Below, piece after piece: positions 1,666-64,000 of a stretch of DNA of 64,000 nt. Source of the stretch: an uncultured Pseudomonadales bacterium (GTDB taxonomy: Bacteria > Patescibacteriota > Microgenomatia > UBA1400 > UBA12028). Numbering within the stretch: position 1 is the first letter of the stretch; each line of letters opens with the position of its first letter. The position numbers and the translations under genes were made by a program. The stretch is from assembly GCA_964635905.1 (NCBI GenBank), contig CAZWPK010000001.1, positions 437,096 to 501,095 of the forward strand, given 5' to 3'. The notes beneath the pieces are model-generated. The model ran no database searches and was not told where the DNA came from. It saw only the letters and a program-made list of their open reading frames with translations.

Positions 1666-1719
1666 TCATGTCGAAGACACACTACAACTTAGCCTCGATT
1701 TACAGTACAGTAAACATAT

Positions 1720-8174: not shown

Positions 8175-8215
8175 CAGTTCCTACAGTAATTAATCGCAAC
8201 ATTTGGTACTATAAA

Positions 8216-10852: not shown

Positions 10853-10855
10853 AAG

Positions 10856-11156: not shown

Positions 11157-11187
11157 TTTGACTCTATAACAGTCGATAGCAGTATCG

Positions 11188-11664: not shown

Positions 11665-11666
11665 AG

Positions 11667-11996
11667 CTAGCTGCGCTTTCGCTGTTCAAGAAGGCTATTG
11701 AATGCGACAACAATTTGTGCCGTTGTGGGATTTTCCGGTAATTCAAGCTGAAGTCTATTTTCAGTTGCAGCCTGATTGAGAGCTGCAATCACAAGTGTCC
11801 TGAACTTTTCGATATTTGGAAGACTTCGTTGTTCTTCATCCATGACAGTTTTCGTTTTGATCAGAAACGCGTCACCCATTTTCTCAAGTACAGTTGGATT
11901 TGAGGCGGTGGGTAAGACGTTAATGAAATGATGTCTCAGGGCTAACGAAATTCCTTGGCGGAGCTTTCGGTGTTCTTCTTGTTCAACTTTTGGCAT
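11667..11996 (-). CDS. hypothetical protein (109 aa) downstream of pheT
   Basis: ORF, tightly spaced between pheT and the 158-aa gene. Confidence 0.35.
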   Translation of the reverse strand: MPKVEQEEHRKLRQGISLALRHHFINVLPTASNPTVLEKMGDAFLIKTKTVMDEEQRSLPNIEKFRTLVIAALNQAATENRLQLELPENPTTAQIVVAFNSLLEQRKRS

Positions 11997-12001
11997 AGGT
12001 G

Positions 12002-14023: not shown

Positions 14024-14026
14024 AAC

Positions 14027-15121: not shown

Positions 15122-15360
15122 AGTCTGCTCCCGAGGCTTATGGACATCACCTGAGAAAATAAATGGGTATTTATTTCAGATAACGTTACAAATCCCTCAT
15201 ACAGAATCTTTGCATCATCGCGATTTAGTGATTCGAGTTCTGCTTTATACGATGCTGGAGTCTTATGTCTAACTTTCCAAGAAATGAAACTTAACCGCAT
15301 ATCTTCATGATCAGAAGTTGACTTCCAGTCTCTCGCGAGTGATTCCAATGTACTTGCCAT
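15118..15360 (-). CDS. hypothetical protein (80 aa) translationally coupled (ATGA overlap) to pheS
   Basis: ORF whose stop overlaps the pheS ATG. No SD upstream. Confidence 0.3.
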   Translation of the reverse strand: MASTLESLARDWKSTSDHEDMRLSFISWKVRHKTPASYKAELESLNRDDAKILYEGFVTLSEINTHLFSQVMSISLGSRL

Positions 15361-15383
15361 AGTTTCATTTTATCAGCTAATTG

Positions 15384-15410
15384 TATAAAAAAACCTCCAT
15401 CGTGTGGAGG
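15384..15410 (-). terminator. attenuator terminator hairpin (CCUCCACACGAUGGAGG + U7) of the pheST leader
   Basis: Read on the minus strand, a GC hairpin is followed by UUUUUUU. Its 5' arm can alternatively pair with an upstream UGGAGG at 15434-15439. Confidence 0.5.
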
Positions 15411-15441
15411 TCATTTGTTGTAGCACACCTTACCCTCCACA

Positions 15442-15492
15442 TTAGCGGTGGTTGGTAAAGAAAAAGCAGCTTGCTTTGTGTGCTGTATGCAT
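15442..15492 (-). CDS. pheST leader peptide (16 aa, MHTAHKASCFFFTNHR) with three consecutive Phe codons
   Basis: Short ORF atg cat aca gca cac aaa gca agc tgc ttt ttc ttt acc aac cac cgc taa lies immediately upstream of the alternative antiterminator/terminator hairpins. Analogous to E. coli pheM. Confidence 0.45.
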   Translation of the reverse strand: MHTAHKASCFFFTNHR

Positions 15493-15554
15493 ACAACCAT
15501 TATCCTATCAAAGGAACGTTCTTTTGCAAGATGAAGAATCGTGAAGGCATTAAA

Positions 15555-15585
15555 AAGGATGTGCCGATTAAACACATCCTTTCAT
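15555..15585 (-). terminator. rho-independent terminator downstream of rplT
   Basis: On the minus strand: AGGAUGUG-UUUAAUCGG-CACAUCCU followed by UUUUU. Confidence 0.55.
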
Positions 15586-15600
15586 TGTTTTCGTTGTGAT

Positions 15601-15954
15601 TTAGCCACGAACTTGGCTCACGATCTTCCCGAAGGATTTTTCGTCTTTAAGAGCAATATCTGCCAAGACCTTGCGATCAAGCAAAATATTTTTCTTTTTT
15701 AATTGATTGATAAATTCACTATAGCGAATTTTCTCATCAATGGCTTTTAAGGCTGCATTCAGACGAACGATCCACAGTTTTCGAAAATCACGCTTGCGAA
15801 GTCGTCGACCTGCGAACGCATACTGACCTGCATGCAAATCAGCTTCGATTGCAACTTTAATCAATCGGTTTTTAGTCATCCGGTACCCTTTGGTACGGGC
15901 TAAGATTTTTTTGTGGGATCGCCGTCGGGCGAATCCTGTTTTAACACGTGACAT
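15601..15954 (-). CDS. rplT: 50S ribosomal protein L20
   Basis: MSRVKTGFARRRSHKKIL... is canonical L20. Confidence 0.95.
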   Translation of the reverse strand: MSRVKTGFARRRSHKKILARTKGYRMTKNRLIKVAIEADLHAGQYAFAGRRLRKRDFRKLWIVRLNAALKAIDEKIRYSEFINQLKKKNILLDRKVLADIALKDEKSFGKIVSQVRG

Positions 15955-16001
15955 AGATGTCCTTATGTACTTTGGTTATTAAGATCTATTAATTGTTTCT
16001 G

Positions 16002-16199
16002 TTAGGCTAATCCAAGCATTTGCTTGATCTTTTTGGCGAATTTCCCTTTGACTTCGACGGGTACTCTGTAGCGTCGAATTGCCTTCTTACTCTTGTTCAT
16101 TCGAAGGTGTCGTGAGTTTTGGCGTCGTCGCATCACTTTACCGGTCGCGGTAATTTTGAAACGCTTCGCAACAATTTTACGTACTTTCTGTTTTGGCAT
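16002..16199 (-). CDS. rpmI: 50S ribosomal protein L35
   Basis: MPKQKVRKIVAKRFKITATGKV... is canonical L35. Confidence 0.95.
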   Translation of the reverse strand: MPKQKVRKIVAKRFKITATGKVMRRRQNSRHLRMNKSKKAIRRYRVPVEVKGKFAKKIKQMLGLA

Positions 16200-16207
16200 A
16201 AAGCTCC

Positions 16208-16762
16208 TTATTCTTGTGATTCTTCATTCTCTTCCGTTGTTTTGCGCTTTTTTACAGGGGCTAACTGCATAAAAGCATTTTTCCCGACTAACCGTGCGGG
16301 TGATTCCACTTTTGAGACATCATCGAGCAACTCCGTTGCTTTGGCAAAGATCGCATCGCCAAAATCCTTACGGGTGATTTCTCGACCCTTGTATTTTACT
16401 ACAAGCTTTACTTTGTCCCCACCTTCGAGATACTCTCGTGCTTTTTTGATTCGAACGTCAAAATCACCTTTGGCAATAAAGGGGGTAAACCAGATTTCTT
16501 TAAGCTCAATATTTTTACTTCTCTTTTTGTCGTCTTGCTGTTTTTGCTGTAACTGATACTTAAACTTGGCAAAATTGATCAGCTTTGCAACCGGTGGTTT
16601 TGCACTCGGAGCAACTTCCACCACATCGACATCCAGTTCCGCAGCTTTTGCCAGGGCTTCACTTTTCGTCATCACGCCCAACTGTTTTCCAAACTCATCC
16701 AGAACACGCATTTCTGATGCCTGGATAAATTGATTTACCTTAAAAAATACTTTTTTTGACAT
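16208..16762 (-). CDS. infC: translation initiation factor IF-3
   Basis: IF3 N- and C-domain motifs (VRVIDEFGKQLG..., ELKEIWF..., FAKFKYQ). Conserved thrS-infC-rpmI-rplT order. Confidence 0.9.
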   Translation of the reverse strand: MSKKVFFKVNQFIQASEMRVLDEFGKQLGVMTKSEALAKAAELDVDVVEVAPSAKPPVAKLINFAKFKYQLQQKQQDDKKRSKNIELKEIWFTPFIAKGDFDVRIKKAREYLEGGDKVKLVVKYKGREITRKDFGDAIFAKATELLDDVSKVESPARLVGKNAFMQLAPVKKRKTTEENEESQE

Positions 16763-16774
16763 GCAATCCTATCC

Positions 16775-17107
16775 TCAACGGCCAAGCCGCTTTCTTGAAG
16801 GACTTATTGTACCAAAACTCTCGACAAAAATACAGGAGAAGAGATACGTTAACAGAATATAGGCTAAAAAGAGGGTGGTGGAGTCTACCGGAGAGAGTGA
16901 TCCGGTAAAAGAATATCCCCCATCCCCTGCTCCTAAGGGTTTACTGGCCGAGGATATTTGGGTGTAGAAGAAGCGATACCAGGATGTGGGAAGGATGCCC
17001 ATGTACGCAAGTGAGCTGATCAGATAGAAAAGCAAAAAGGCAAACCAAATAGCGATCTTGGGGAGAGTCGGTTGAAGATAACGCTTGAATCGAGTGGTCA
17101 TGCGCAT
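16775..17107 (-). CDS. small membrane protein (110 aa, 2 predicted TM) inserted between thrS and infC
   Basis: ORF with two hydrophobic helices. Confidence 0.35.
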   Translation of the reverse strand: MRMTTRFKRYLQPTLPKIAIWFAFLLFYLISSLAYMGILPTSWYRFFYTQISSASKPLGAGDGGYSFTGSLSPVDSTTLFLAYILLTYLFSCIFVESFGTISPSRKRLGR

Positions 17108-17188
17108 ACAAAAACGGGTAGGAGTGCTTACGTTCCTACCCGTCTATCTTACACTTTTTCTGACTGATTTCGCAGGGGTGATCACCAA

Positions 17189-18943
17189 TTAGACTGCCAA
17201 GTCTCGATTGGCATTCTTTTCGATAAGTTGCTGTATGAATTTCTCCACTTCCCAGACCCCGCGATTGACATTTCCTCGAGCACGGACAGAAACTGTTTCT
17301 GCCTGTGCCTCTTTGTTCCCGACGACCAGCATGTACGGTATTTTTTGGTGTTCTGCCTTTCGAATACGATTTTGCATACTTTCAGCTTCATTCCAGTTTT
17401 CGACACGAATTCCAGCTGCTTGCAATTTTTCAAGTAATCCTTGGGCATATGGCTGCTGATCTTGAGAGATTGGGATGATCACGGCTTGAATGGGAGACAA
17501 CCACAGTGGGTAAGCACCGGCAAAATGCTCAATCATGAAGGCAAGGAAGCGCTCATGGACTGATAATGGAGCACGATGGATGACAAAGACTTCAGTAGAC
17601 TGCGCTCCTGATTCATCGACATACTCGAGTCCAAAACGCTTTTTTGCAGCAAAATCGAGTTGAATGGTCGACATTGTCTCTTCCCTCCCAATGGCAGATT
17701 TAAACTGCACATCCACTTTTGGACCGTAAAAAGCTGCTTCATCATCGGCTTCCACAAATTTCACATCAAGCTCTTGGAGGACTTCGCGCAGCACATTTTG
17801 ACTTAATTCCCAGTTCTCGGGCTCATCGATGTACTTTTCTGTGTTTGCGCTATCCCATTTGGATAAGCGGAACCAATAGTCCTTGAGACCAAAGATCTTA
17901 AAGTACTCCATGGTGAGCCTGAGCACGTTAGCGAATTCTTCTTTGATTTGGTCCTTTCGGGCATAAATGTGGGCATCGTTCATACTCATGCCGCGGACAC
18001 GCAAGAGCCCTGCCAGGGCCCCAGACAACTCATTGCGGTAGCAGGTGCCATATTCTGCAATGCGCATGGGAAGCTCTTTGTAGCTTCGAGGCGTATGCTG
18101 GAAGATCCGATGATGATGCGGACAGTTCATAGCTTTGAGATAATAGGTTCCATCATCCATGACCATGGGTGGATACATACTATCTTTGTAGTATGGCAAG
18201 TGACCGGACGTTAGAAAGAGCTCTTCTTTGGCAATATGGGGGGTCGCCACGCGCACATACCCGGCCTTTGCTTCTTGCTCCTTGGCGAGTTTTTCCACTT
18301 GATCGCGTAGGATTGTGCCGTTGGGAAGCCACATAATGAGACCCTTGCCCACCATCTCATCGATGAAGAAGAGCTCTTGGTCTTTTCCGATTTTTCGGTG
18401 ATCGCGCTTCTTGGCTTCTTCTAGCATTGTTAGATGGGCGTCTAATTCTTTTTGCGACGAGAAACAGGTTCCATAGATACGTGTAAGCATGGCGTTCTTC
18501 TCACTACCGCGCCAATAGGCACCAGCAACGGAAAGCAGCTTGAAATAGCGGAGCTCTTCATCAGGATGTTCTACATGTCCTCCTCGACACAAGTCAGAAT
18601 AGTCTCCCGACGTGTACATGGATAAGACCTCACCTTTAGTGGCAAATTCTTCGATCAATTCCTGTTTATACGGGTTATCCTGGTATTCGTTCTTGGCTTC
18701 ATCTACCGAGACTTCCTGACGGGAGAAATCCTTCCAGGTTTTGGCGATGGCATGCATCCGTTCTTCAATAGCTGGAAAATCACTTTCCGAGATCGGTTTC
18801 TCAAATTCAAAGTCAAAATAGAATCCTGAATCGATGGCTGGACCAATCGTACGCTTGGTTGTTGGCCAGAGATCCATGACTGCTGCTGCAAGTAAATGTG
18901 CGCAGGAGTGGCGTAGATATTCGAGATATAGTTCTTTTTTCAT
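17189..18943 (-). CDS. thrS: threonine--tRNA ligase (compact form lacking the N-terminal TGS domain)
   Basis: HSCAHLLA second-domain motif. Class II catalytic core and anticodon-binding domain. AAAGGA RBS. Confidence 0.9.
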   Translation of the reverse strand: MKKELYLEYLRHSCAHLLAAAVMDLWPTTKRTIGPAIDSGFYFDFEFEKPISESDFPAIEERMHAIAKTWKDFSRQEVSVDEAKNEYQDNPYKQELIEEFATKGEVLSMYTSGDYSDLCRGGHVEHPDEELRYFKLLSVAGAYWRGSEKNAMLTRIYGTCFSSQKELDAHLTMLEEAKKRDHRKIGKDQELFFIDEMVGKGLIMWLPNGTILRDQVEKLAKEQEAKAGYVRVATPHIAKEELFLTSGHLPYYKDSMYPPMVMDDGTYYLKAMNCPHHHRIFQHTPRSYKELPMRIAEYGTCYRNELSGALAGLLRVRGMSMNDAHIYARKDQIKEEFANVLRLTMEYFKIFGLKDYWFRLSKWDSANTEKYIDEPENWELSQNVLREVLQELDVKFVEADDEAAFYGPKVDVQFKSAIGREETMSTIQLDFAAKKRFGLEYVDESGAQSTEVFVIHRAPLSVHERFLAFMIEHFAGAYPLWLSPIQAVIIPISQDQQPYAQGLLEKLQAAGIRVENWNEAESMQNRIRKAEHQKIPYMLVVGNKEAQAETVSVRARGNVNRGVWEVEKFIQQLIEKNANRDLAV

Positions 18944-42256: not shown

Positions 42257-44383
42257 CTAGAGGCCGATTTCCTGAGCATGCGCTTGCATCGCTGGAAGAA
42301 CAACTGAAATTAAGGTGTTCAAATCAATGTTCAGATGTGTTAGACCTTCCGTAATCTCCTCTCGAGTTGCCCCTTTTGCAAACGATTTCTCTTTAAATTT
42401 CTTAGCGACCCGTTCTGGGGTAACCGTGGCCAGTTTCTTCTCTGGCATGACTAAAGCACAGGCAACAATGATTCCGGTTAGGTGATCACAAGTATATAAA
42501 CACCATTCCATTAAGGACTCTGGATGTCGTTGACCTTCTAGGTGTTCATAGTTATGGGTGCGAATACTATCTGCCCAAGCGGGCTGAATTCCTAACTTTT
42601 CTAGCTCTTGAGACAAGACAAGTGTGTGTTGATCTGGAGTATCTTCAGTCTTCTCCCAGTCTGCATCATGAAGTAACCCAACCAGTTCCCAACTTTGCTG
42701 CGTTTCACTTACTTCTTGTGGTCGATTGGAAGAGAAATAGCTCCAGAGTCCCGACATTGCAGCTTCCACTGCAAACATATGAGATTTCAGATTTTGGTTG
42801 TCAATGAGTTGGTCTAGCAGCCCAACAGCTTGCTCACGAGTAAGTGTAAGAGCTGTCAAAGCACCCGGCTTTGTTGCGCTCTTCGCTTTGGGTGCATGGT
42901 GATTGAGCATCAACGCAGAAATCTTTTGCTGTTCTTCTGTGGGACGTAACGTAGGAAATGCGATGACTTCTTTAATGGACCAAGTGTTGGTCAAAAACAT
43001 CACCAGACGATCGATTCCAATTCCAATTCCACCTAGTGGAGGTAGTCCATGTTCCATGGCTGCGATGAAGTCCTCATCCAACGGTTGGGCTTCGGCATCT
43101 CCTTCGCGCATATTCTTTTGCTCATTTTCGAATCGGGCACGCTGATCGAGCGCATCGGTGATCTCACTCCAACCATCTGCCATTTCTTTAGTACCCACAT
43201 ACAGCTCGAAACGTTCTACAAATCCATCCTTACTTCGGTGCGCTTTGGCAAGGGGACTGACTTCTTTAGGATAATCAATGATCCAGGTTGGGTTTAACAA
43301 CTGCTTGGTTGTGAGGTGATCAAAAAGAGCAAAGATTGCTTTACCGCGGGTGAAACTACCGGTCAATTCAATGGTATGCGTTGCCAAGACTGCTTCCAGT
43401 TGCTCATCGGAAAGCTCGTTCACATCAATCTCATTATACTTTTTTAGTGCATCCGTCATGGTGATTCTTGGCCAGTTACCAGACAAATCAATTTGGGTTT
43501 GCCCGACATCGAGGGTAAGCGAGTTATAGAGCTTCTGAGCTAAGTGCTTAAACATTCCTTCGGCAACGTCCATCATGACGGTGTAGTCTGCGTAGGCGTG
43601 ATACCACTCAATCATCGTAAACTCTGGTTGATGAGTCTGATCAATGCCTTCATTTCTAAAGTTACGCGCAATTTCAAAGACTCTCTCGTAGCCACCGACA
43701 ATCAGACGCTTTAGATACAGCTCTGGAGCAATCCGCAAAAAGAAGTCACTATCCAACGCATTCATGTGTGTAGAGAATGGCTTGGCATTTGTTCCCCCAT
43801 ACAGAGGTTGAAGCACCGGGGTTTCCACTTCCACAAAGTTATAGACGTCTTGAAGATAGCGTCGAATTTCCTTTTCGATGAGCCAACGTGCATCCAGCAC
43901 TTTCTTGACCTGAGGATCAATGACCATGTCTAGATAACGGTTGCGAAAACGAACTTCTTTGTCTTCAATACCTTGGAATGATGCAGGCAGAGAGCGCAGT
44001 GCTTTGGAGAGCAGGGCAAGCTCACCGGCCTCGATCGTTATCTCCCCTGTTTTGGTTTGAATGACTTTCCCGGAAACACCCAAATAATCGGATGCATCGA
44101 TCAAGGTAACCAATTGCTTATAGGCAACAATTCCTACTGTCTCTTCTTTGACCATGACTTGAATGGTCCCAGATGGATCGGACAAATTGAGGAAGGTTAC
44201 CTTTCCGTGCTCGCGCTTGGACAGAATGCGTCCGGCCGTGGTTACCTCTTCACCTAGTGATTCTCGTGCAGTAGACACACCATGGGTTTTGGCAAAGCTA
44301 TACGGATGGACTACCACACCTTGGGCTTCTAGTTCTTTGCGCTTGGCAAGCTTGGCTTGAATTGTTTCATCGAGACGGGACAT
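42257..44383 (-). CDS. lysS: lysine--tRNA ligase (class II) fused to a ~200-aa C-terminal HD-domain (YqeK-like phosphohydrolase) extension
   Basis: LysRS core runs to ...IAFPTLRP at about residue 497 (E. coli LysS ends there). The extension carries H (KSHMFAVE), HD (LLHDADW), H (IRTHNYEH) and D (CDHLTG), matching the HD superfamily motif order. Confidence 0.85.
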   Translation of the reverse strand: MSRLDETIQAKLAKRKELEAQGVVVHPYSFAKTHGVSTARESLGEEVTTAGRILSKREHGKVTFLNLSDPSGTIQVMVKEETVGIVAYKQLVTLIDASDYLGVSGKVIQTKTGEITIEAGELALLSKALRSLPASFQGIEDKEVRFRNRYLDMVIDPQVKKVLDARWLIEKEIRRYLQDVYNFVEVETPVLQPLYGGTNAKPFSTHMNALDSDFFLRIAPELYLKRLIVGGYERVFEIARNFRNEGIDQTHQPEFTMIEWYHAYADYTVMMDVAEGMFKHLAQKLYNSLTLDVGQTQIDLSGNWPRITMTDALKKYNEIDVNELSDEQLEAVLATHTIELTGSFTRGKAIFALFDHLTTKQLLNPTWIIDYPKEVSPLAKAHRSKDGFVERFELYVGTKEMADGWSEITDALDQRARFENEQKNMREGDAEAQPLDEDFIAAMEHGLPPLGGIGIGIDRLVMFLTNTWSIKEVIAFPTLRPTEEQQKISALMLNHHAPKAKSATKPGALTALTLTREQAVGLLDQLIDNQNLKSHMFAVEAAMSGLWSYFSSNRPQEVSETQQSWELVGLLHDADWEKTEDTPDQHTLVLSQELEKLGIQPAWADSIRTHNYEHLEGQRHPESLMEWCLYTCDHLTGIIVACALVMPEKKLATVTPERVAKKFKEKSFAKGATREEITEGLTHLNIDLNTLISVVLPAMQAHAQEIGL

Positions 44384-55022: not shown

Positions 55023-55094
55023 GGGCCCGTAGCTCAGTGGTAGAGCAGGAGCCTTTTAAGCTCTGTGTCGTGAGTTCGATCCTCACCGGGCTCA
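55023..55094 (+). tRNA. tRNA-Lys (anticodon TTT)
   Basis: GGGCCCGTAGCTCAGTGGTAGAGCAGGAGCCTTTTAAGCTCTGTGTCGTGAGTTCGATCCTCACCGGGCTCA forms a cloverleaf with anticodon loop CTTTTAA. No CCA encoded. Confidence 0.85.
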
Positions 55095-55132
55095 CAGACA
55101 TACTATGTATAGTGTGAGAGAATTTCTAGGTT

Positions 55133-55205
55133 GGCCCCATCGTCTAGAGGCCTAGGACACCTGGTTTTCATCCAGGCAACCCGAGTTCGAATCTCGGTGG
55201 GGTCA
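55133..55205 (+). tRNA. tRNA-Glu (anticodon TTC)
   Basis: GGCCCCATCGTCTAGAGGCCTAGGACACCTGGTTTTCATCCAGGCAACCCGAGTTCGAATCTCGGTGGGGTCA with anticodon loop TTTTCAT. Canonical T-loop TTCGAAT. Confidence 0.85.
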
Positions 55206-55382
55206 CAAATATCGTAAGGTTCAGCGCGACCCGTTCGCCTGCGCAAAAAAGCCCGATAAGGCTTGCTAATTTTTGACCGAATTGTTCGAAATCGAGTTTT
55301 AGATCCTGTAATAGGTGAATTTACCCCAATGGGACACTCCCTTTTAAAACCACGAGAAGAACACCTACCCCTGTAGATGTCG

Positions 55383-56735
55383 CTATTTCTGAATAACTAT
55401 CGTTTTATTTGTCAGAATAAACTTCGTTTTGATGAAAGTGAGTGCTTCTTGTCTCTCTTCGGCCGTACCAATCTGAAGGATGTGAAGTAGATAGTTTTTG
55501 GTCATCTCGTTCTTGTCAGCAGAGGTTTTGGGGATTCTTTCAAATTCACCCAAATGGCCATCAATATATTCCTGATGTAAAACTTGTGACTTTAGTCGGT
55601 GATATCTCTCGATATCTTCTTGGATTTTTCGAGATACTCCGGCGTTGTTAAATTTGATTTTGTCAATGTTGGCGATTAGTTGTTTAACCAGATCTGTTTC
55701 GGTAATGTATGGTTCATCGCATTCATAATTTAATGATCTACCACAGTGATAGTAAGTGTGTTTGGTATATCCACCATGTTTTAGTTTCCTAATTTTTTCT
55801 TCGGCTGTGACACCTCCTCCACACCCACCACAACGGAAGATGCTTTTGAATGGGAATATTTTGTTTTTGTAGCCTTTGGGAACTGTTTGTAAAATTGACT
55901 GGACTTTATCGAAGAGATCCTTGGTAATGAGTGGGGTATGTTTCCCCTGATACCAAGTACCACTTCCGACTGGGAATTCAAACTCTCCAAAGTAGAAGGG
56001 GTTATTGAGCGTGGAATACACCTTACTTAACGGCATTGGTTTGTCGTTTCTAGTTTTGAAGCCGATTCGATCTAGGCAGTGTTTTATGGCTCTACCGCTA
56101 TGACCTTGATTTGCCACTCTTTCAAACATTTGAGTGACAAATGAAGCTCGATCGGGGTCTAGGATGATTAGTTCATCCTTATGACCATCACCCGCTTGAT
56201 TTAAATATCCTACAGGAGCGATGCTTGGCCTCCATCCCATTGAGCATTTCGTCCGTAAACCTCGCTGGACATTAAGTCCTTTGTTATCGTTCTCTAGCTT
56301 TGCCTGCGAGCAAAGAATCATGAGTAGGAACTTCTCGTTTGGGCTATTTGTAAAACTTTGAGAGTAAGTTTGTATCTTTATCAACTTACCTTGATCCATG
56401 AGATCAACTACTGATCCTAAGTCACCGGCATTGCGACTCAAACGATCGGGAGCCCAAGTTAAGATTCCATTAAATTTCTTTTGACGTATTTCTTGAAGAA
56501 GTTGAGTAAATACTGGCCGAGACCCAGACATTTTTGCTGAATGACTTTCCTTTTTAACTTCTTTTATCTTGAGATTGTCACGCTTCGCCAATGTAAGCAT
56601 TTCGTCAATCTGTGAATCAATCGACATTGCTTGCCGTTCATCAGATTCGGATGACTTACGGGCATAGAGACAATATTCTATTTTTGGTGGTTCTATCGGC
56701 TGATTTTGATTGTATGTTCCCATTTCAGGGTACAA
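55383..56735 (-). CDS. large serine recombinase / serine integrase
   Basis: N-terminal resolvase catalytic region LYARKSSESDERQAMSIDSQ. Recombinase domain and zinc ribbon (CGGCGG...YYHCGR). Coiled-coil C-terminus. 450 aa. Confidence 0.85.
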   Translation of the reverse strand: MYPEMGTYNQNQPIEPPKIEYCLYARKSSESDERQAMSIDSQIDEMLTLAKRDNLKIKEVKKESHSAKMSGSRPVFTQLLQEIRQKKFNGILTWAPDRLSRNAGDLGSVVDLMDQGKLIKIQTYSQSFTNSPNEKFLLMILCSQAKLENDNKGLNVQRGLRTKCSMGWRPSIAPVGYLNQAGDGHKDELIILDPDRASFVTQMFERVANQGHSGRAIKHCLDRIGFKTRNDKPMPLSKVYSTLNNPFYFGEFEFPVGSGTWYQGKHTPLITKDLFDKVQSILQTVPKGYKNKIFPFKSIFRCGGCGGGVTAEEKIRKLKHGGYTKHTYYHCGRSLNYECDEPYITETDLVKQLIANIDKIKFNNAGVSRKIQEDIERYHRLKSQVLHQEYIDGHLGEFERIPKTSADKNEMTKNYLLHILQIGTAEERQEALTFIKTKFILTNKTIVIQK

Positions 56736-56824
56736 GGTACCGCTGGGTCTCGAGGAAGTCTAGTCGGAGAATAAATTACTGCTTTTTGTTGTTCTATCCT
56801 AGAATTTCCAATACAATTTAAGCT

Positions 56825-57607
56825 ATGATTATAGTTAAGGTATTAATTGCCTTGCTTTTGTTTATGACCAACTTTAACCAAGTACGTGCATCGGAGAGTT
56901 CAGGAAAAAGAATATTGTTTATACACCACTCTACTGGTGGAAATTTAATTAAAGAAGGCAATTTAAGAGCAGAAATTAAAAAGCTAGATCCAAATATCCA
57001 GTTTTGGGATCACAATTACAATCTTTTTCCAGTTTTTACTTCGTTACTAGCTAAATTTACTCATTTAAAAGGGTTGTCCAACGCCGAAGGTCAAATTACA
57101 GGTAAAGATTACAATATTGTTCTGAGCAACAATAGTCCAAAAGAATATGCCGAGATTTTTTCCAGAGGTCCCAATGATCCAACTCTAAAAGCCATACTGA
57201 GTTATGACGTAATCGCTTTCAAAAATTGCTACCCAACAACACGAATTACCTCAGATCAACAACTCGAAGATGACAAGAAATATTATCTGGTTATTAGGGA
57301 TAATCTTAAAAAATATCCAGAAAAACAATTTATTCTATTAACACCACCTCCAGCTAGAATAGAAACAACGAATATTGACAATGCTGACCGAGCCAAAGAG
57401 TTAGTCAAATGGCTAAATTCGGAGGAGTTTATAAAAGGAACTAAAAATATACATATTTTTGATTTTTACGATCTACTTGCCGATGAGCAGGGAATGTTGA
57501 AGAAAGATTATCAAAGACTTTTACCCTGGGATTCTCATCCCAACTTAAAAGCTAATTTGACCGCTGCCCCTATTTTCGCAGAATATTTAGTGAAGTTATC
57601 AAAATAG
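56825..57607 (+). CDS. secreted protein, possibly an SGNH/GDSL-like hydrolase (very AT-rich gene)
   Basis: Signal peptide MIIVKVLIALLLFMTNFNQVRA. Blocks LFIHHSTGGN and WDSHPN loosely resemble SGNH blocks I and V. Confidence 0.3.
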   Translation: MIIVKVLIALLLFMTNFNQVRASESSGKRILFIHHSTGGNLIKEGNLRAEIKKLDPNIQFWDHNYNLFPVFTSLLAKFTHLKGLSNAEGQITGKDYNIVLSNNSPKEYAEIFSRGPNDPTLKAILSYDVIAFKNCYPTTRITSDQQLEDDKKYYLVIRDNLKKYPEKQFILLTPPPARIETTNIDNADRAKELVKWLNSEEFIKGTKNIHIFDFYDLLADEQGMLKKDYQRLLPWDSHPNLKANLTAAPIFAEYLVKLSK

Positions 57608-57610
57608 TTA

Positions 57611-58597
57611 CTATATCCTGATTTGTTTTTCCAGCCAAGGGATATTTTCGTTTTGTCTTTTCCACCACAAATCTTCCCAGATATAGTGCACAGCAAGTTG
57701 TTTATATTCTCCAAATCTTTCAAAGTGTTTAAGAATTTTGTCTACTGGCACAGGGTTTTCTGGGTCAACATCGAAAAATACTTTGGAGTAGATTTTTTGT
57801 TCCCAAGGGGAAACGTGATTAAAGAAATCCCAATGGTGAAATACATCAAAAAGCAAATACCAGACTGTTGCTGGCCCAACACCATAAAGTTTTAGCAATT
57901 CGTTCATCTGAGTTTCCCTGTCCTTTTTTCTTAGCTCCATTTCATCCATTAAACCTTGAGTAAAATACTCATCGATTTTCTTTATAGATTTGGCTCTATA
58001 CCCAAGTTTTAATGCTCTCAATTCGTCCTCGGTTATATTTTGCAATCTACCAGGCTTGAAGAAACACCAAAGTTTTTTACCATCAAATTCTAGTTCAGTT
58101 CCATAATTTTCAAGGAGAGCCTTGAACATTTGTACACTTCTTCTGACAGTTGCATTTTGTAGGACAATTCCAATGAGTAGATATTCATATAAAGAGCTCG
58201 GGTGACCTGGTTTCATTCCTTGCCACTTTTTTATGATAGGCCCAAGGACTTTGTCATTTCCAAATTCTTTATAAAACGATGCCAAATCTAATTCTAGGTT
58301 GTATCTGTATCTGATTTCATCGATCAAACTATCAACAAATTCTTTATCAAGTTTTTCCTCTGAATAAATACCTATTTCAATACTTGGATTTAGTGTAGAT
58401 CCAGTATTTTTAAATCGAATACCTAAACACTTTTCTTTCCATGTCCAAGTTTGCCAGCGTGTTCCAACTTCCCATAGATTATCGCCAGATGTAAAGTGAT
58501 CTGGTTTATGAAAAGTAGCATCAAAATTAAATGGTGCTAGTGGCGACAATTCTTTGACAACTTTATAGCTTAGTTTCATGACTTTGAGATCTCCCAT
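57611..58597 (-). CDS. HhH-GPD superfamily DNA glycosylase (AlkA-like)
   Basis: Helix-hairpin-helix LLKLYGVGPATVWYLLFDVF followed by a conserved Asp region. 328 aa. Confidence 0.55.
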   Translation of the reverse strand: MGDLKVMKLSYKVVKELSPLAPFNFDATFHKPDHFTSGDNLWEVGTRWQTWTWKEKCLGIRFKNTGSTLNPSIEIGIYSEEKLDKEFVDSLIDEIRYRYNLELDLASFYKEFGNDKVLGPIIKKWQGMKPGHPSSLYEYLLIGIVLQNATVRRSVQMFKALLENYGTELEFDGKKLWCFFKPGRLQNITEDELRALKLGYRAKSIKKIDEYFTQGLMDEMELRKKDRETQMNELLKLYGVGPATVWYLLFDVFHHWDFFNHVSPWEQKIYSKVFFDVDPENPVPVDKILKHFERFGEYKQLAVHYIWEDLWWKRQNENIPWLEKQIRI

Positions 58598-58944
58598 ATA
58601 TTACCATCTGGGTCCTTAAAGTATGCCACAGTTTGCCCCCATTCAGTTGTTTTGGGACCTTCAAAGACTTCAACATTCTTGGCCTTTAACGCTTCACATG
58701 TTTTGTCTACATCAGAGACTTGAAATCCATATACCGCACCACCTGCCTTTCCCATATTCTTTGCTGGAAACATTGCAATTGCTGTTTTTCTACTGAATAT
58801 AGCTAAAGAAGTCCCTTCTAATTTGAAATCAGCGAATTCACCATCGGTAGAGTTTACTTCCAAACCAACGACATCCCTGTAAAAAGTTAGGGAACGCTCG
58901 AAATCAGCTACTAATAAGCAAACTGCAAATAGTTTATTGAACAT
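58576..58944 (-). CDS. VOC family protein (glyoxalase/bleomycin-resistance fold)
   Basis: VADFERSLTFYRDVVGLEV...DPDGNIWEI is typical of VOC. Confidence 0.6.
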   Translation of the reverse strand: MFNKLFAVCLLVADFERSLTFYRDVVGLEVNSTDGEFADFKLEGTSLAIFSRKTAIAMFPAKNMGKAGGAVYGFQVSDVDKTCEALKAKNVEVFEGPKTTEWGQTVAYFKDPDGNIWEISKS

Positions 58945-59053
58945 ATTAAATTCACCTCCTTTCAGTATTTACAGGAAGGTTACCAGTTAAGTCTAGTATT
59001 CTCTAGGGTAGTTAACTACACCAAGAATCAACTATAATTACGGTAGCTTTTAT

Positions 59054-59728
59054 ATGCACGAAACACAAAAAATACTACTGAAACGATTGCTTACACAGAA
59101 TGGGCAAAGATACTCCAGTCTCACAGTCGGCTACGATTTTGACGACAATGTCGTATTTCACCTTAAACAGTTAATTAATAAAGGTCTGATGAAGAAAGAG
59201 GCTGATAAATATCTAATAACTCTTGAGGGAATTAAAGTCATCACAGATTACGACTTACTAACCATCGAGGATACTGGATATAAAACGTTTTTTGTCGGAT
59301 TTTTATGTAACTTTGGAGATAAGTACTTAATAAAAGAACATCCCACTGAAACAACCAATTTTTATAATCTACCAAGCGGTAAACCAAGATTTGGAGAATC
59401 GATCGATATTGCTTTAATTCGTACCTTTGAGTCCAACACTGGTATCACTCTTAACAAAAAAGATTTTAAGTTTCGGTCGTTACACTTGAAGACTGTCAAA
59501 ACTTCATTAGGAGAAACATTATTTGATGATGCATTCACAATTTATACAGTGGAAATCAATCAAAAACAAAAAGAGAGAATGAAATTACACAAACAAATTA
59601 GTTGGAAGTCGATTGGTGAGATTCAAAAATTATCAAATCGCTGGCCAGAAATAGATATTTGTATTTTGAAAAATGACTCAAGTCCTTATCTTAGTTATGA
59701 ACTAAAGTCAGACTATATATTGAGCTAA
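59054..59728 (+). CDS. winged-helix plus Nudix-like domain protein
   Basis: N-terminal wHTH-like region. Partial Nudix box SGKPRFGESIDIALIRTFESNTGI. Confidence 0.4.
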   Translation: MHETQKILLKRLLTQNGQRYSSLTVGYDFDDNVVFHLKQLINKGLMKKEADKYLITLEGIKVITDYDLLTIEDTGYKTFFVGFLCNFGDKYLIKEHPTETTNFYNLPSGKPRFGESIDIALIRTFESNTGITLNKKDFKFRSLHLKTVKTSLGETLFDDAFTIYTVEINQKQKERMKLHKQISWKSIGEIQKLSNRWPEIDICILKNDSSPYLSYELKSDYILS

Positions 59729-59733
59729 CTGTT

Positions 59734-60204
59734 TTAAACTCCAGCTCTTTTGTCAACTAAACCACCCATATAGTTTGCTTTGTAGATTATTTTGTCGCCT
59801 TGAGTTATTTGTTCCTCTCCAGAATATCGCTCAACATCACCAGTCCAACTGTTGTGATAAGTAAATTCACCATCGACAAATTCTTTAGGTCCACGGAAAG
59901 GCGCATCTTCAGGCATCTGCTTTAGAGCACCCCTAAGAATTGCGTAAACCGGATCTGTAGCTACTCCCTCTGCGACCCAGCCATAATAAACCATCATCCA
60001 AACCGGCTTGTCCTGATAAAAAGCGACAAGTCTACCGCCATATGGTTCGCCACCGAAGAAATTATCGTGAGATTTCCATTCACCTTTAGTATAAGGAATT
60101 GTTGTTGATCCATCTGATTCTTTTATCCATTTCTTTTCTTCACCACCAGCATAACCAGCGTTGTTTGAATCGAGTAGAAAATTTACAAGAGCTTGTTTAT
60201 TCAT
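59734..60204 (-). CDS. conserved hypothetical protein (156 aa); paralog of 11188-11664
   Basis: High similarity to the core-genome copy. ATGA overlap with the upstream gene. Confidence 0.5.
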   Translation of the reverse strand: MNKQALVNFLLDSNNAGYAGGEEKKWIKESDGSTTIPYTKGEWKSHDNFFGGEPYGGRLVAFYQDKPVWMMVYYGWVAEGVATDPVYAILRGALKQMPEDAPFRGPKEFVDGEFTYHNSWTGDVERYSGEEQITQGDKIIYKANYMGGLVDKRAGV

Positions 60205-60527
60205 AGTTCATCCTCCGATAGTAATGGGTATATATCAAAAGCGACTTCTTCATAGGGATGAACTTTGCGCATTGCAGAAATTACGTCTTTTGCTTTATCT
60301 CTGTCACAGACGCACTCGACACGTTCTTCTTGCACCTCTTCAGGTTTGCCAACCTCACCAATGGTTGGATTAGCACCTTCAAGAGGAAGAAATCATCCAA
60401 TATCATCTATTGAATAACTGCAGTGACTGTAATTCCCGATCTTTCCCGCACCAGCACCACCCATCGCTTTACGAACGATGTCTGTGTGAGACTTTGGTAC
60501 GAACACAACTATTTTAACTTGCGACAT
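60201..60527 (-). pseudogene. conserved small protein (~107 aa, IGNYSHCSYS...PLEGANPTIGEVG...HPYEEVAFDIYPL family) interrupted by an in-frame TGA at 60393-60395
   Basis: Minus-strand translation reads MSQVKIVVFVPKSHTDIVRKAMGGAGAGKIGNYSHCSYSIDDIG*FLPLEGANPTIGEVGKPEEVQEERVECVCDRDKAKDVISAMRKVHPYEEVAFDIYPLLSEDEL. Both halves are in the same frame. Coupling to flanking genes is preserved. Confidence 0.5.
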
Positions 60528-60540
60528 ATTATTTTTATGA

Positions 60541-60870
60541 TTAGTTATCCCAAAGTTCCATTAGTAATAGGACTTTGAGAGTCTGATTTGGTAACGAGTG
60601 GTAGTTATAGACAGTATGGGGTGGAATTGTAAAAACATCGCCTTTGGCAACCTTGGTGACATCTTTCCCAATAACAAATTCTCCTACTCCATCCACAATA
60701 TAATAAATTCTTTCTAGATCATTTGTATGGACTTCACCGTGGTCATTTGTAATTTCGGCATAAACAACTGACTGATAACCATTCAAGTGTTTAAGCTTGT
60801 AGTTCCAGCTTTTCGTCTGATCCCAGTCTTGGCGAATTGATTGTTTTTGAGTGATTTTCATATGTTCCAA
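60541..60870 (-). CDS. cupin domain protein
   Basis: Cupin motifs HTNDLERIYYIVDGVGEF and GDVFTIPPHTVYNY. Confidence 0.55.
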   Translation of the reverse strand: MEHMKITQKQSIRQDWDQTKSWNYKLKHLNGYQSVVYAEITNDHGEVHTNDLERIYYIVDGVGEFVIGKDVTKVAKGDVFTIPPHTVYNYHSLPNQTLKVLLLMELWDN

Positions 60871-61589
60871 TTAGTCATCTTTAATTCAATGGTGTCTATT
60901 TGGATTTTCCTAGGAGCGGCAATAGCTTCGACAATATAATGAGCGACTTCAGCTGGATTCATTTCCGCGCTGTGATCGTCACCAAAATCATCCCCCGCAT
61001 TTTTATCTATATTGGTGGTAATCGGACCGGGATGAATCGAGGTGACTTTAATATCTGAGTTATTGTTATATCTAGAAGCTAAGGATTTTGTATAACCTGT
61101 GAGAGCCCATTTAGTGGCTGTATACACAGACCAATTCTCATTTTCAGGATAAGGTAGTCCAGCAATAGAATTTATAAACACGAAATGACCAGATTGTTGC
61201 TTCTCAAATTGAGGTATAAGCGATTCAGCAAAATATATTGGGCCTAAAGAGTTAGTCTCAAAAGCCTGTTTAATTCTTGAGAAATCGTTGGTAGCTATTT
61301 TGTTTGAAATCCAAACACCAGCATTGTTGACTAAAACATCAACTTTGCCAAACTTTTCTACGATCTTGTTAACGGTTTCTTTTACCTGGGTAGCATCAGA
61401 AACATCACAAGTAAAACACTCTGCTTTTCCACCATCGTTGACTATTTGTTCTTTTACTTTTTGAAGTAGATTTTCTTGACGAGCAACAAGGGCGACAGTT
61501 GCACCAACTCTAGCAATCTGGCAAGAAATTTCCCTACCAAGTCCTTGACTAGCACCTGTGACAATAATAATTTTATCTTTAAGTTGCAT
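60858..61589 (-). CDS. short-chain dehydrogenase/reductase (SDR)
   Basis: TGASQGLGREI cofactor motif. NNAG. Catalytic YxxxK (YTATK). Confidence 0.8.
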   Translation of the reverse strand: MQLKDKIIIVTGASQGLGREISCQIARVGATVALVARQENLLQKVKEQIVNDGGKAECFTCDVSDATQVKETVNKIVEKFGKVDVLVNNAGVWISNKIATNDFSRIKQAFETNSLGPIYFAESLIPQFEKQQSGHFVFINSIAGLPYPENENWSVYTATKWALTGYTKSLASRYNNNSDIKVTSIHPGPITTNIDKNAGDDFGDDHSAEMNPAEVAHYIVEAIAAPRKIQIDTIELKMTNWNI

Positions 61590-61735
61590 GTTTGTATTTT
61601 ACTTTAATTTGCCTAGAGTATAAAGGCGATACATAGCAACAGTACCTCAATCTCTAAAAAAGTCCAGCCATTCTTTTTCCCAACAAAAGATGCCTGCGGT
61701 TTAGTTCAGGCATCCTTTGTATTTAGCCGTAGTCA

Positions 61736-62338
61736 TTATCTACCCAGGTCGACTACGATGCTTTTGTTGCTCCAGAAACTGGCGTTGTACTGGAACTTTA
61801 AGCCTGTAGCTGTTTTGGGTACTTCAAATCCGACCCAATCAGTTTTCTTGGCTTTGGCTATCAGTGCGCCGTCTAATCCCAGAGACCCTGGATTTTCCAT
61901 TCTCTTGCTGGTTACCGTAGTCTGATATTGATTATTATCTTTATCAGTCACAAACATCTGGCCTAGGGTAGTAATGTACTCTTGGTTTGATCCAGTGTTT
62001 TCAACCGTCAGATTCAGCTCTATCCATTGGTTTCCAGATGATGGCTTGGTGTATTGACCACCTTGGGATGTCTCTACTTTATTAACGGTTAGGATGACAT
62101 CACCCATTTGGACTTTATCGCCGACTTTATACATCTGCTGGGTAGGCTGATTGTTAGTATTGGTCGCGGTTTGGGTAGTAGTGGAGTCGTTAGACCCAAC
62201 TTTCTTGCTTTCGCCACCTTTACTGCCAATCATTCCCAGAACAATGATGATGAGTAGGGCAATTCCGCCCCATTTTAGTAATTTTTTCATTATTTTCTCA
62301 CCTCCTTTCTTTAACTGAATAATACCGCTTTTAGCCAT
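61736..62338 (-). CDS. DUF4352-like secreted/lipoprotein (Ig-like domain)
   Basis: Signal/TM KKLLKWGGIALLIIIVLGMIGS, a Thr-rich linker, then YKVGDKVQMGDVILTVNKVE...WVGFEVPK typical of DUF4352. Confidence 0.5.
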   Translation of the reverse strand: MAKSGIIQLKKGGEKIMKKLLKWGGIALLIIIVLGMIGSKGGESKKVGSNDSTTTQTATNTNNQPTQQMYKVGDKVQMGDVILTVNKVETSQGGQYTKPSSGNQWIELNLTVENTGSNQEYITTLGQMFVTDKDNNQYQTTVTSKRMENPGSLGLDGALIAKAKKTDWVGFEVPKTATGLKFQYNASFWSNKSIVVDLGR

Positions 62339-62396
62339 GAAATGCTAGTTATCGTCTGTAGAGCTATTGACATCATTTAGTTACGCTTTATGTACT

Positions 62397-62609
62397 ATGT
62401 CAATAACTCCTACCAGAAAGCAGTTTGGCAAGAGGCTAAGAGCCTTAAGAAAGAAGGCTGGGCTGTCTCAGGAGGAATTAGGCTTTAGAGCCAACCTCCA
62501 TAGAACTTATATCGGTTCTATCGAAAGAGCTGAGCAAAACGTGTCGGTGGATAATATCCACAAACTCGCTAAAGCCTTGAAAGTCTCGGCTGACGAGTTC
62601 TTCAAATAA
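62397..62609 (+). CDS. XRE family HTH transcriptional regulator
   Basis: LRALRKKAGLSQEELGFRANLHRTYIGSIERAEQNVSVDNIHKLAKAL. Probable start at the internal Met (62397). Confidence 0.6.
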   Translation: MSITPTRKQFGKRLRALRKKAGLSQEELGFRANLHRTYIGSIERAEQNVSVDNIHKLAKALKVSADEFFK

Positions 62610-64000
62610 TTAAAATCTTTTACCCCACATCCCTGCGGTGATGGGTGCGTCTAAGTTTCGGTACTCTCCAGTGAATGGATCTATTCCCCAACGATCCCTT
62701 GGTGGCTCGGTAGGGCCATTTGATTTATAGGTTGGTCTGTCAGACTGCAAGACTTTTAAAACGATTATGGTAAATGCATCAACCAGATCGTCATGCTTTT
62801 CGATGCCAAAATTTACGATTTGACTAATGAGAGACTCTGCACCTTTTTGTGGGAACAGAACTTTACCTTGTCTGATATATGGCGTTGCCATTTCTAACCT
62901 TGTCTGTTTATTCATGCCGGATATCGCAACTGGTTCTGCTAATATTTTTTCAATAGTTAATTGTTGAACGACTGCCATTTGGTAGCTTACATTTTCAACT
63001 AAAACCGTAGGTACTCGTTTGTAGTCTTGTTCTAAAACGGCACTAACTCTTTTAATTTCTAAAATCGTATCGGGAAAGTTCATCCGTTTATTTACGATAT
63101 ACGGCAGGACGTATATTTTTAAGTCGTCCCCGTATCCAATAACAATAAAGGGAACGAGGGAGGTAAAATCTGCACTGCTTTTTTCGGAAATAGCCAAGTC
63201 AATTCCGATTCCTAAAATTCGATAATATCGTAGGTCTGGCAACTTATCATAAAACTGTGGCCAGCTCCTTTGCACGATTCTCTTATCGTCAGAAATAAAC
63301 TTGAGTAAATACTCACGATACCAAGCTGATTCATCTGCAACCTGTCGTCTTTTTGTTTCGATATGCATCATCGAGGGATATTTGCCAAGCCAAGCGATAT
63401 TGTCATTTTTATCGAGTAAGGGGTATTCTTTGTAGACTCCATCCATTTTTCCGTTATTAATATTTTCCTTTAGTCGCATCATTAGAGAGTCTTCATGCAA
63501 GAGGTTTCCGATAATAACAATCTTAGTATTAAGATCGCCGATAGGCATAACCTCTCCCGTAAACCAATTCCACACTTTGTCCCGACCCTCTCTAGTTTTA
63601 ACTGATTCCAAATCTTCAACGTCATCAATCACGATAAGGTCTGGCCGATACTGGTAGTGGCGTAACCCTCGGATACTCTCACTTTGAGAGATGGCCGAAA
63701 TGCGAGCGTTAAATTGGGGAATTACAAATGAGTTAGACCTCCACTCATCGGCAACTTCATTAAATGGTCCAAAGTCTCGGATTAATAATTCATTTGATGA
63801 CAATTCTTGTTTAATGTTAGTTAATATTTGCTTGGATAGATCCTGAGTTTGGCTAACAACTAAGGTATATTTCTTGGCAGGTCTACCCACCATTGCCCAG
63901 ATTGGGTAGGCAAGACTGGCAATGGTCGATTTTGCCGAACCTCGAAAAGCCGTTATCGCTACTTTTAATAATCCGTCATTTTGCAGCAGATTAAATATTT
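62610..64000 (-). CDS. phage terminase large subunit (the N-terminal ATPase part runs off the window end)
   Basis: The reading frame stays open to nt 64000. The upstream translation gives ...FRGSAKSTIASLAYPIWA (Walker A-like P-loop). DLIVIDDVED resembles Walker B. A C-terminal RNaseH-like nuclease region has acidic residues. Confidence 0.65.
   Translation of the reverse strand, partial: IFNLLQNDGLLKVAITAFRGSAKSTIASLAYPIWAMVGRPAKKYTLVVSQTQDLSKQILTNIKQELSSNELLIRDFGPFNEVADEWRSNSFVIPQFNARISAISQSESIRGLRHYQYRPDLIVIDDVEDLESVKTREGRDKVWNWFTGEVMPIGDLNTKIVIIGNLLHEDSLMMRLKENINNGKMDGVYKEYPLLDKNDNIAWLGKYPSMMHIETKRRQVADESAWYREYLLKFISDDKRIVQRSWPQFYDKLPDLRYYRILGIGIDLAISEKSSADFTSLVPFIVIGYGDDLKIYVLPYIVNKRMNFPDTILEIKRVSAVLEQDYKRVPTVLVENVSYQMAVVQQLTIEKILAEPVAISGMNKQTRLEMATPYIRQGKVLFPQKGAESLISQIVNFGIEKHDDLVDAFTIIVLKVLQSDRPTYKSNGPTEPPRDRWGIDPFTGEYRNLDAPITAGMWGKRF

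Follow-up and report, generated by a model that had tools for sequence, protein, structure and literature searches.

The last 8.8 kb of a 64,000-nt stretch of bacterial DNA (contig CAZWPK010000001.1 of GenBank assembly GCA_964635905.1, positions 437,096 to 501,095 of the forward strand; here called the window and numbered from its first base) belong to an integrated mobile island and form its part next to the tRNA. The island is bounded by a large serine recombinase (LSR), belongs to a conserved family with variable cargo, and resides in a Microgenomates-type host of the Candidate Phyla Radiation (CPR). We interpret it as a satellite-like integrative island that has its own terminase and would borrow its capsids from a helper phage, and we put the probability of this interpretation at about 0.6. 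It matches the general description of a satellite in being a small integrative element (14.4–20.8 kb in relatives) with both terminase subunits, small (TerS) and large (TerL), and without virion genes.

The island begins at 55207, directly after the last base of tRNA-Glu(ttc): the tRNA end reads ...GGGGTCAC, and its terminal TCAC is followed by AAATATCGTAAGGTTCAGCGCGACCCGT. We place the start there because the spacing between the tRNA end and a 17-mer family motif, GGTTCAGCGCGACCCGT (55218–55234 in the window), is fixed across metagenome copies. A metagenome collection scanned with the 17-mer gave 120 stretches, some 95 of them chance matches and 25 genuine copies, and in all 25 the motif runs on into the same island sequence. 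Sixteen of the 25 adjoin a tRNA gene at a fixed distance, 13 at tRNA-Glu (ttc/ctc) and three at tRNA-Lys (ttt/ctt), with the motif starting 11 nt past the tRNA end called by ARAGORN in 15 cases and 9 nt past it in one (L061; such handles denote related loci). The other nine are preceded by degenerate tRNA-like fragments that likewise end in TCAC. Relatives conserve the 176-base stretch that separates tRNA-Glu from the integrase stop codon (nhmmer profile match at 55210–55368, E=3e-44), and it includes a weak hairpin, terminator-like, that follows the integrase gene. An initial annotation of the window had proposed a foreign element integrated directly after tRNA-Glu, and the junction conserved in relatives bears this out. 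Another candidate for the crossover core, ACGG(G)TC, found near both ends and 22 nt from the tRNA, was rejected after the metagenome scan, because the 11 nt and the motif are constant whichever tRNA precedes them and are thus island sequence.

The opposite, distal end was seen in relatives, as a conserved block of ~200 nt that ends ...GGTTCCAGACCCGTATGGCTCAC (full form ...GGGACTAAACGGTTCCAGACCCGTATGGCTCAC) and gives way to unrelated host sequence. This end resembles the 3' half of a tRNA. A stem, ACGG/CCGT, encloses a T-loop-like GGTTCCAGACC (real tRNAs have GGTTCGAATCC), and the T-arm mimic is followed by an acceptor-like strand ending in CTCAC. All that the two junctions have in common is TCAC (GTGAG on the other strand), 4–5 bp, as seen in L040, L060 and L170. 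From this comparison we infer a crossover core of TCAC, which in the window is 55203–55206, the last four bases of tRNA-Glu. The initial annotation had called for a search for a distal direct repeat of the tRNA-Glu 3' end; no sensible repeat of 11 nt or more was found in six loci and the extended window. That check was mis-specified for a serine integrase, since serine recombinase junctions share only a short core and leave no long direct repeat. In a second subfamily (L006, L008, L013, L016, L028) the target is tRNA-Gln and the core is of CAGC type, and L041 adjoins tRNA-Ser. The distal block occurs nowhere in the window or its extension to 66740 (see below), and the window's copy is therefore longer than 11.5 kb. 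Rfam searches of the conserved non-coding end blocks matched nothing, tRNAs being the only hits, and in IMG/VR the 17-mer alone gave two chance matches on unrelated contigs.

We located the distal block at 817–1027 in L005, 659–870 in L040, 2758–2980 in L006, 1736–1935 in L008 and 4119–4258 in L170. Upstream of the first gene it bears the repeats ATGAGACAAATGAGACAC and, inverted, GTGTCTCA. Rfam has nothing that matches the block, which could serve as an operator or promoter, or as a packaging site.

The gene next to the proximal end had been called a 450-aa large serine recombinase, first gene of the element. This is confirmed by three Pfam domains (Resolvase PF00239, 8e-20; Recombinase PF07508, 1e-12; Zn_ribbon_recom PF13408, 2e-6; all above cut-offs), by the phrog_95 integrase profile (2e-59), and by sequence matches to PDB structures of the SPbeta SprA and TP901-1 LSRs. 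The domains come in LSR order, an N-terminal resolvase catalytic domain followed by the recombinase and then the zinc-ribbon domain. Homologues point to Met5, at 56723, as the start, so the product is probably 446 aa long. Exact-protein look-ups of the integrase, with two start codons tried, yielded no further contig and no circular form on record. An HTH_17 excisionase-like gene is present in relatives.

At its far end the window enters a terminase operon. The TerL reading frame is open at nt 64000, from which the initial annotation had rightly concluded that the element continues. Contigs from two public assemblies (L001, L003), 100% identical over the overlap, add 2,740 bases, to ~66740. 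The first 47 codons of TerL lie past the window, and the full protein has 510 aa. Upstream of TerL, on its strand, come the genes for TerS, a methyltransferase and a 277-aa protein, with stop and start codons that overlap. TerL is the last gene of the operon, is transcribed towards the integrase, and has no portal gene after it. No portal, capsid, tail or lysis genes were found in 55207–66740. The ATPase half of TerL resembles T7-type TerL structures in sequence. For the 277-aa protein, the structure model was poor (pLDDT 67, pTM 0.39); Foldseek against PDB returned nothing below E=1, and the model bears an insignificant LuxR/NarL-type helix-turn-helix resemblance over ~60 residues. Between TerL and the cargo lie an XRE gene, whose repressor-like character, noted at the outset, has an HTH_3 match behind it, and a DUF4352 gene that is also present in L005, L169 and L170. 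We count the DUF4352 position, that of a small envelope protein, as semi-conserved backbone because relatives have a lipoprotein or SHOCT protein there.

The same backbone recurs elsewhere. TerL scans of species-representative genomes and IMG/VR gave 35 loci, whose open reading frames (ORFs) were clustered all-against-all. Thirty-two of them, with TerLs 42–99% identical and mostly labelled CPR bacteria, make up the module set; TerL homologues bear Gottesman-, Woese-, Beckwith- and Shapirobacteria names, which is the ground for assigning the window's host to the Microgenomates type. The gene order is methyltransferase, TerS, TerL, an optional XRE gene, a variable slot and the serine recombinase. 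TerL is present in all 32 loci, the ParB-methyltransferase in 27, TerS in 26, a large serine recombinase in 23 and XRE in 15. The recombinase follows TerL directly, on one strand, in at least seven loci; otherwise 1–9 kb of unrelated genes lie between. No further protein family is common to more than five of the 32 loci, and nowhere in the set does TerL occur together with a portal, capsid or tail family. This absence is meaningful, because a portal or capsid gene travelling with so conserved a TerL would have clustered. Eight further loci with precomputed Pfam annotation presented the same picture. Two distant TerLs, at 22–26% identity (L035, L038), share a 736–767-aa gene directly downstream, in the usual portal position and unannotated. 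Two relatives, L040 and L006, are complete, and neither has a recognisable virion gene. Some relatives have a LexA-like S24 repressor.

Genes outside the backbone vary. The window's cargo occupies a slot at 56.8–61.6 kb whose content differs even between close relatives, in agreement with the initial reading of the block between integrase and terminase as cargo. In L047 (integrase 88% identical) the slot is empty, and TerL lies within 170 bases of the integrase. L153 (95% integrase identity, 84% in nucleotides) sits at tRNA-Lys(ctt) but shares the AlkA-like and VOC genes with the window. L121 (integrase 95% identical) sits at tRNA-Lys(ttt) with a heavy-metal P-type ATPase in the slot; heavy-metal ATPase and Dsb genes are found in the slots of L121 and L170, the latter with Dsb, HMA and ATPase genes. 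Other slots contain restriction-modification (R-M) genes (L072, L134), a type I R-M system (L040) or a run of small hydrolases (L169). R-M systems also lie beside the backbone (type I in L012 and L040, type IIG in L014 and L041, type II with MamI in L006), as do PD-T7-5-like and LmuA-like genes in L005. Variable regions flank the backbone on both sides and are often defensive, and PADLOC defence matches fell only within this variable cargo of the relatives. Because the same lineage sits at different tRNA genes with different cargo, we regard these sequence comparisons as direct evidence for its mobility and cargo turnover.

Miniature copies that keep both conserved ends without a recombinase (L060, L154; Table 1) are non-autonomous derivatives that the recombinase may mobilise in trans. 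At L006 2643–2820 the distal end of the island abuts sequence resembling the proximal end of another copy, and next to it are a fragment that looks like a tRNA and the distal gene C5 in a second copy, inverted; we read this as a head-to-tail junction or the remnant of a tandem or nested insertion. In Peribacteria-type loci (L024, L026, L031–L033) the backbone has two tandem TerL paralogues and a split or duplicated ParB-methyltransferase.

We propose the following cycle for a satellite-like island. The recombinase would integrate a circular form, whose tRNA-like attP would pair with the 3' end of tRNA genes ending ...TCAC (Glu, Lys); similar 3' sequences (Gln, Ser) would also be targeted. The predicted attP junction joins ...CCCGTATGGCTCAC to AAATATCGTAAGGTTCAGCGC.... 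Excision would take place with a directionality factor, and the HTH_17 excisionase-like gene of relatives is the kind of candidate to supply it. The XRE repressor, and in some relatives the LexA-like repressor, would hold the island. After de-repression the methyltransferase would modify island DNA, and the island's TerS and TerL would then package the modified DNA into helper-phage procapsids. The two variable slots would make the island a carrier of defence and stress cargo.

Several observations weigh against this interpretation. No helper phage is known or was identified. No replication gene was recognised, and primase, replication, capsid and portal families were absent from profile searches of the backbone. 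Neither a circular (attP) nor an empty (attB) junction was seen, the attP pattern having no match in IMG/VR, and the distal end of this copy lies beyond the sequence examined (to ~66740). In three loci (L005, L007, L017) a recombinase is missing within 10 kb of TerL. Some genes adjacent to the backbone are unannotated (the 277-aa gene, C5, and a set of 260, 556, 281 and 818 aa in L040) and could hide divergent functions. We also considered the genes downstream of TerL in L005, L007 and L017 as a structural module and rejected them; they are NrdD and activase, ZnuABC, ABC transporters and a two-component system.

The main rival is an LSR-mobilised island that its terminase does not package. The terminase would instead compete with phages for procapsids or take part in other DNA processing, and the island would spread by transformation or another route. 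CPR bacteria carry competence-type DNA-uptake genes, which counts in favor of this account, as do the defence cargo around the backbone in relatives (type I and IIG R-M, PD-T7-5-like, LmuA-like) and the fact that neither a replication module nor a helper phage was identified. Yet TerS and TerL together with an orphan methyltransferase of late type fit known packaging logic. PADLOC had no match for TerL, and for the methyltransferase it gave only generic type II/orphan methyltransferase models. Interference and self-packaging are moreover compatible, and known satellites do both. We judge a terminase that does not package the island rather unlikely.

A decaying cryptic prophage, left immobile with residual terminase genes, is unlikely to a greater degree. 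Decay would suit the missing virion genes, the fresh pseudogene in the cargo, the relatives without a nearby recombinase, and the existence of degenerate tRNA fragments and miniature copies. It does not suit the backbone genes, which are under strong purifying selection. We compared the window lineage with L005 and L004 (dS 0.6 to 2.0), and the recombinase with L121 and L153; dN/dS was 0.01–0.06 across all four backbone genes (TerL 0.012–0.014, TerS 0.02–0.06, methyltransferase 0.02–0.03, recombinase 0.02). Such constraint is unlike a decaying prophage remnant. The catalytic residues are intact, with Walker A K71/S72, Walker B D173/D174 and nuclease D315/D451/D452/D455 conserved in 36 TerLs. 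The island ends are also intact and match the family consensus, copies 84% identical sit at different tRNA genes, and the capsid-less architecture is kept down to ~42% TerL identity in many phylum-level lineages.

We consider it very improbable that the island is a complete temperate prophage, one whose structural, tail and lysis genes would be found past the end of the window and upstream of the methyltransferase. The initial annotation had leaned this way, expecting structural genes further on. An integrase, an XRE repressor and a terminase are indeed present, and TerL, TerS and a ParB-methyltransferase are a typical start of a phage late operon. The distal part of the window's copy lies past the sequence at hand, and some neighbour genes in relatives are unannotated. 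The next 2.7 kb, however, hold TerS, the ParB-methyltransferase and the 277-aa gene, and portal, capsid, tail and lysis genes were not found as far as 66740, some ORFs there being unannotated; nor does a virion family appear in the 32 relatives. TerL closes its operon, facing the integrase, with no portal behind it in these module loci. The complete relatives, at 14.4 and 20.8 kb, are without recognisable virion genes, R-M or defence genes fill a variable stretch upstream of the backbone, and in L170 the distal end comes only 5.9 kb past the 277-aa gene.

That two unrelated neighbours lie here, a recombinase-cargo cassette next to the tRNA and a distinct remnant with the terminase, might account for the unequal guanine-plus-cytosine (GC) content of cargo and backbone genes (0.33–0.38 versus 0.40–0.43) and for the differing cargo of relatives. 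It is scarcely credible, given that TerL is linked to the recombinase in 23 loci and adjacent to it in at least seven of them, and also in L047, that in L040 and L006 the two genes both lie inside the conserved proximal and distal ends, and that no distal-end sequence occurs in 55207–66740, hence none between the cargo and XRE/TerL.

The satellite-like island has partial counterparts among known elements. Phage-inducible chromosomal islands of the capsid-forming kind (cf-PICIs) are likewise chromosomal islands, of 10–20 kb, that encode TerS and TerL themselves and need a helper phage for what else goes into the virion (bioRxiv 10.1101/2022.09.08.507074). They differ in encoding capsid, portal, protease and connector, whereas the island in the window has no capsid or portal and has a serine integrase. 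With this integrase, and with primase, replication, capsid and portal families not found in the backbone, it falls outside both PICIs and cf-PICIs. Tyrosine integrases are used by cf-PICIs. Staphylococcus aureus pathogenicity islands (SaPIs), classical PICIs and P4-like satellites resemble the island in site-specific integration, a repressor-controlled cycle and, in some members, TerS, but have tyrosine integrases and primase/replication genes, and no TerL. We know of none described in CPR bacteria. These satellites have hotspots with anti-phage defence cargo (NAR 2023, PMC10085698). The PICI-like elements (PLEs) of Vibrio cholerae share LSR integration and manipulation of helper packaging (bioRxiv 10.1101/2024.04.22.590561). 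In contrast to the island, PLEs lack TerL, target Vibrio repeats rather than tRNA genes, and include a replication module; in sequence the two are unrelated.

Two further groups are similar in how they integrate. SPbeta with its SprA recombinase, TP901-1 and the skin element have the same recombinase domain architecture, a short crossover core and no long direct repeat. They are full or formerly full prophages of 40–130 kb that insert into protein-coding genes, whereas the island targets the extreme 3' end of tRNA genes, has a tRNA-like attP, and lacks virion genes. Tyrosine-integrase islands at tRNA genes have in common with it insertion at the tRNA 3' end, low GC, accessory cargo and miniature derivatives. 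Those islands duplicate 15–50 bp of the tRNA; here 4–5 bp are shared, the tRNA is intact, and the recombinase is of the serine family.

The unusual features are the presence of a complete terminase where a capsid is lacking, a tRNA-mimicking attP by which a serine recombinase is aimed at the 3' ends of tRNAs, two hotspots for cargo, and miniature derivatives. This type appears to be absent from the described satellite families (P4-like, PICI, cf-PICI and PLE; PMC10085698). Full-text literature searches found no published description of a CPR element with this architecture, which is not proof, many subscription papers lying outside their coverage. The prophages that PMC6509639 describes in Roizmanbacteria are ordinary capsid-bearing phages. 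A broader proposal, which we offer tentatively and do not yet favor, is that CPR bacteria (Patescibacteria) harbor a large, undescribed family of helper-dependent islands with a full terminase and a packaging-time methyltransferase but no capsid. An attP imitating the tRNA 3' half would open Glu, Lys, Gln and Ser tRNA genes to one enzyme lineage, and the family, spawning miniature copies, would be the main shuttle for R-M, defence, metal-resistance and house-cleaning genes.

In the window, the island follows a tRNA pair that has the ATP-synthase operon and LysRS upstream. GC content is 0.442 in the core (1–55206) and 0.383 in 55207–64000. When the GC comparison suggested by the initial annotation was run, the region fell outside the core range, below every core window of the same 8.8-kb size (minimum 0.416). 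The sharp drop 3' of tRNA-Glu described there is real in extent, but it is a gradient and not a step: GC is 0.40 in the integrase gene and reaches its minimum, 0.33–0.35, in the cargo at 56.8–59.7 kb. A megablast search of the 8.8 kb against GenBank phages gave no match.

Low GC (0.36) was also noted at window 1–2000, where an XRE-like ORF (1747–1935) is a weak paralogue (30% identity) of the island XRE; these first 2 kb could be the edge of another foreign element. The lysine-tRNA ligase ORF (42257–44383, minus strand) encodes 708 aa, with LysS models stopping at residue 482 and a C-terminal extension of ~225 aa. In L039, which contains the window's ATP-synthase operon as found in the independent sample SRR8893623, the contig ends inside tRNA-Lys, 213 bases past atpB; a look-up of the ATP-synthase a-subunit gene beside the tRNAs gave no other contig. 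The contigs that cover the island break near the 277-aa gene. Heterogeneity in the population may be why assemblies break at either side of the island.

The cargo was annotated by Pfam and PHROG matches to window ORFs (Table 1). Pfam upheld the VOC, cupin, SDR and DUF4352 assignments made earlier from the sequence. The 260-aa protein, first taken for a secreted hydrolase, has no family support and retains only a signal-peptide-like N-terminus; its gene sits on an 835-bp segment (56774–57608) that is missing from the close relative L153 (blastn). The AlkA-like protein is common to L153 (89% aa identity), and its designation as a glycosylase has a weak HhH-GPD match behind it, below the Pfam cut-off. 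Of the supposed winged-helix-Nudix protein, the Nudix part stands on a PHROG match, and the winged helix is weak. The gene said to be a paralog of a core-genome gene is a DUF5680 gene, with its core copy at 11191–11658 (minus strand; 64% identity, tblastn), and the island copy is a diverged duplicate of this resident family. A small gene with an in-frame TGA, also as annotated, belongs to the YqfO family. All eight homologues read have Arg at position 45, where the stop lies, which rules out recoding or selenocysteine. At the amino-acid level of the homologues, the change is compatible with a single CGA-to-TGA substitution. The same stop appears in the independent sample SRR8893623, as a 44-aa gene call (L167). 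The interrupted gene is thus a recent pseudogene within the cargo.

Table 1. Features of the island, its surroundings and selected relatives. Positions are in the window, or continue its numbering past 64000, unless a locus is named.
Feature	Position	Strand	Evidence or remarks
tRNA-Lys(ttt)	55023-55095	+	ARAGORN, Rfam
tRNA-Glu(ttc), integration target	55133-55206	+	ARAGORN, Rfam
Conserved non-coding proximal end (attL arm, island side)	55207-55382		nhmmer profile, metagenome loci
Large serine recombinase (integrase), terminal gene of island	55383-56735	-	Pfam, PHROG, PDB matches
260-aa protein, signal-peptide-like N-terminus	56825-57607	+	no Pfam or PHROG match
HhH-GPD-like (AlkA-like) protein, weakly supported	57611-58597	-	Pfam HhH-GPD 6.7e-5, below cut-off
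VOC/glyoxalase/bleomycin-resistance-like protein	58576-58944	-	Pfam Glyoxalase 4.5e-20
Nudix-like protein, weak N-terminal winged helix	59054-59728	+	phrog_1198 MutT/NUDIX 8.6e-7; HTH_45 0.0047
DUF5680 protein	59734-60204	-	Pfam 3e-29
YqfO-family gene with nonsense codon (108 aa)	60201-60527	-	TGA at 60393-60395 replacing Arg45
Cupin	60541-60870	-	Pfam Cupin_2 3e-8
Short-chain dehydrogenase/reductase (SDR)	60858-61589	-	Pfam adh_short 6e-52
DUF4352 membrane-anchored or lipoprotein-type protein	61736-62338	-	Pfam 4e-21; phrog_806; weak Sie-like match
XRE/Cro-CI-type repressor	62367-62609	+	Pfam HTH_3 1.9e-16; cluster C4, 15 related loci
Terminase large subunit (TerL)	62610-64000, on to ~64142	-	phrog_38 3.9e-73
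TerS, 139 aa	~64135-64554	-	five PHROG small-terminase families, 4e-9 to 3e-5
ParB-N6/N4 methyltransferase (ParB_N + N6_N4)	~64547-65866	-	Pfam
277-aa gene, no family match	from ~65949	-	extension contigs
Relative L040	L040 688-21534		20,847 bp; both ends in view
Relative L006	L006 ~2807-17238		~14.4 kb; complete Woesebacteria genome CP011214
Miniature copy L060 (same in L090)	L060 1331-2687		1.36 kb; both ends kept, no recombinase; at tRNA-Glu, two small membrane-protein ORFs
Miniature copy L154	L154 ~14131-14290		~150 bp; both conserved ends kept, no recombinase

Fragments of this family (L028–L034) are catalogued as viral in IMG/VR because TerL is treated as a viral hallmark gene. Recognising the family would prevent such false prophage and virus calls in CPR bacteria. 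With well-defined att sites that mimic tRNAs, the family's recombinase is a candidate tool for engineering genomes at predictable targets. If the satellite-like interpretation is true, the island is a new satellite design, and it raises the question of how a foreign TerL docks on the portal of a helper. CPR bacteria account for a large share of the diversity of bacteria; their genomes are very small, and CRISPR is rare in them. To our knowledge few mobile elements are known in them, and the exchange of defence and stress genes there is largely obscure. A conserved island with two slots for R-M and defence genes would be a concrete vehicle for gene exchange among CPR bacteria.

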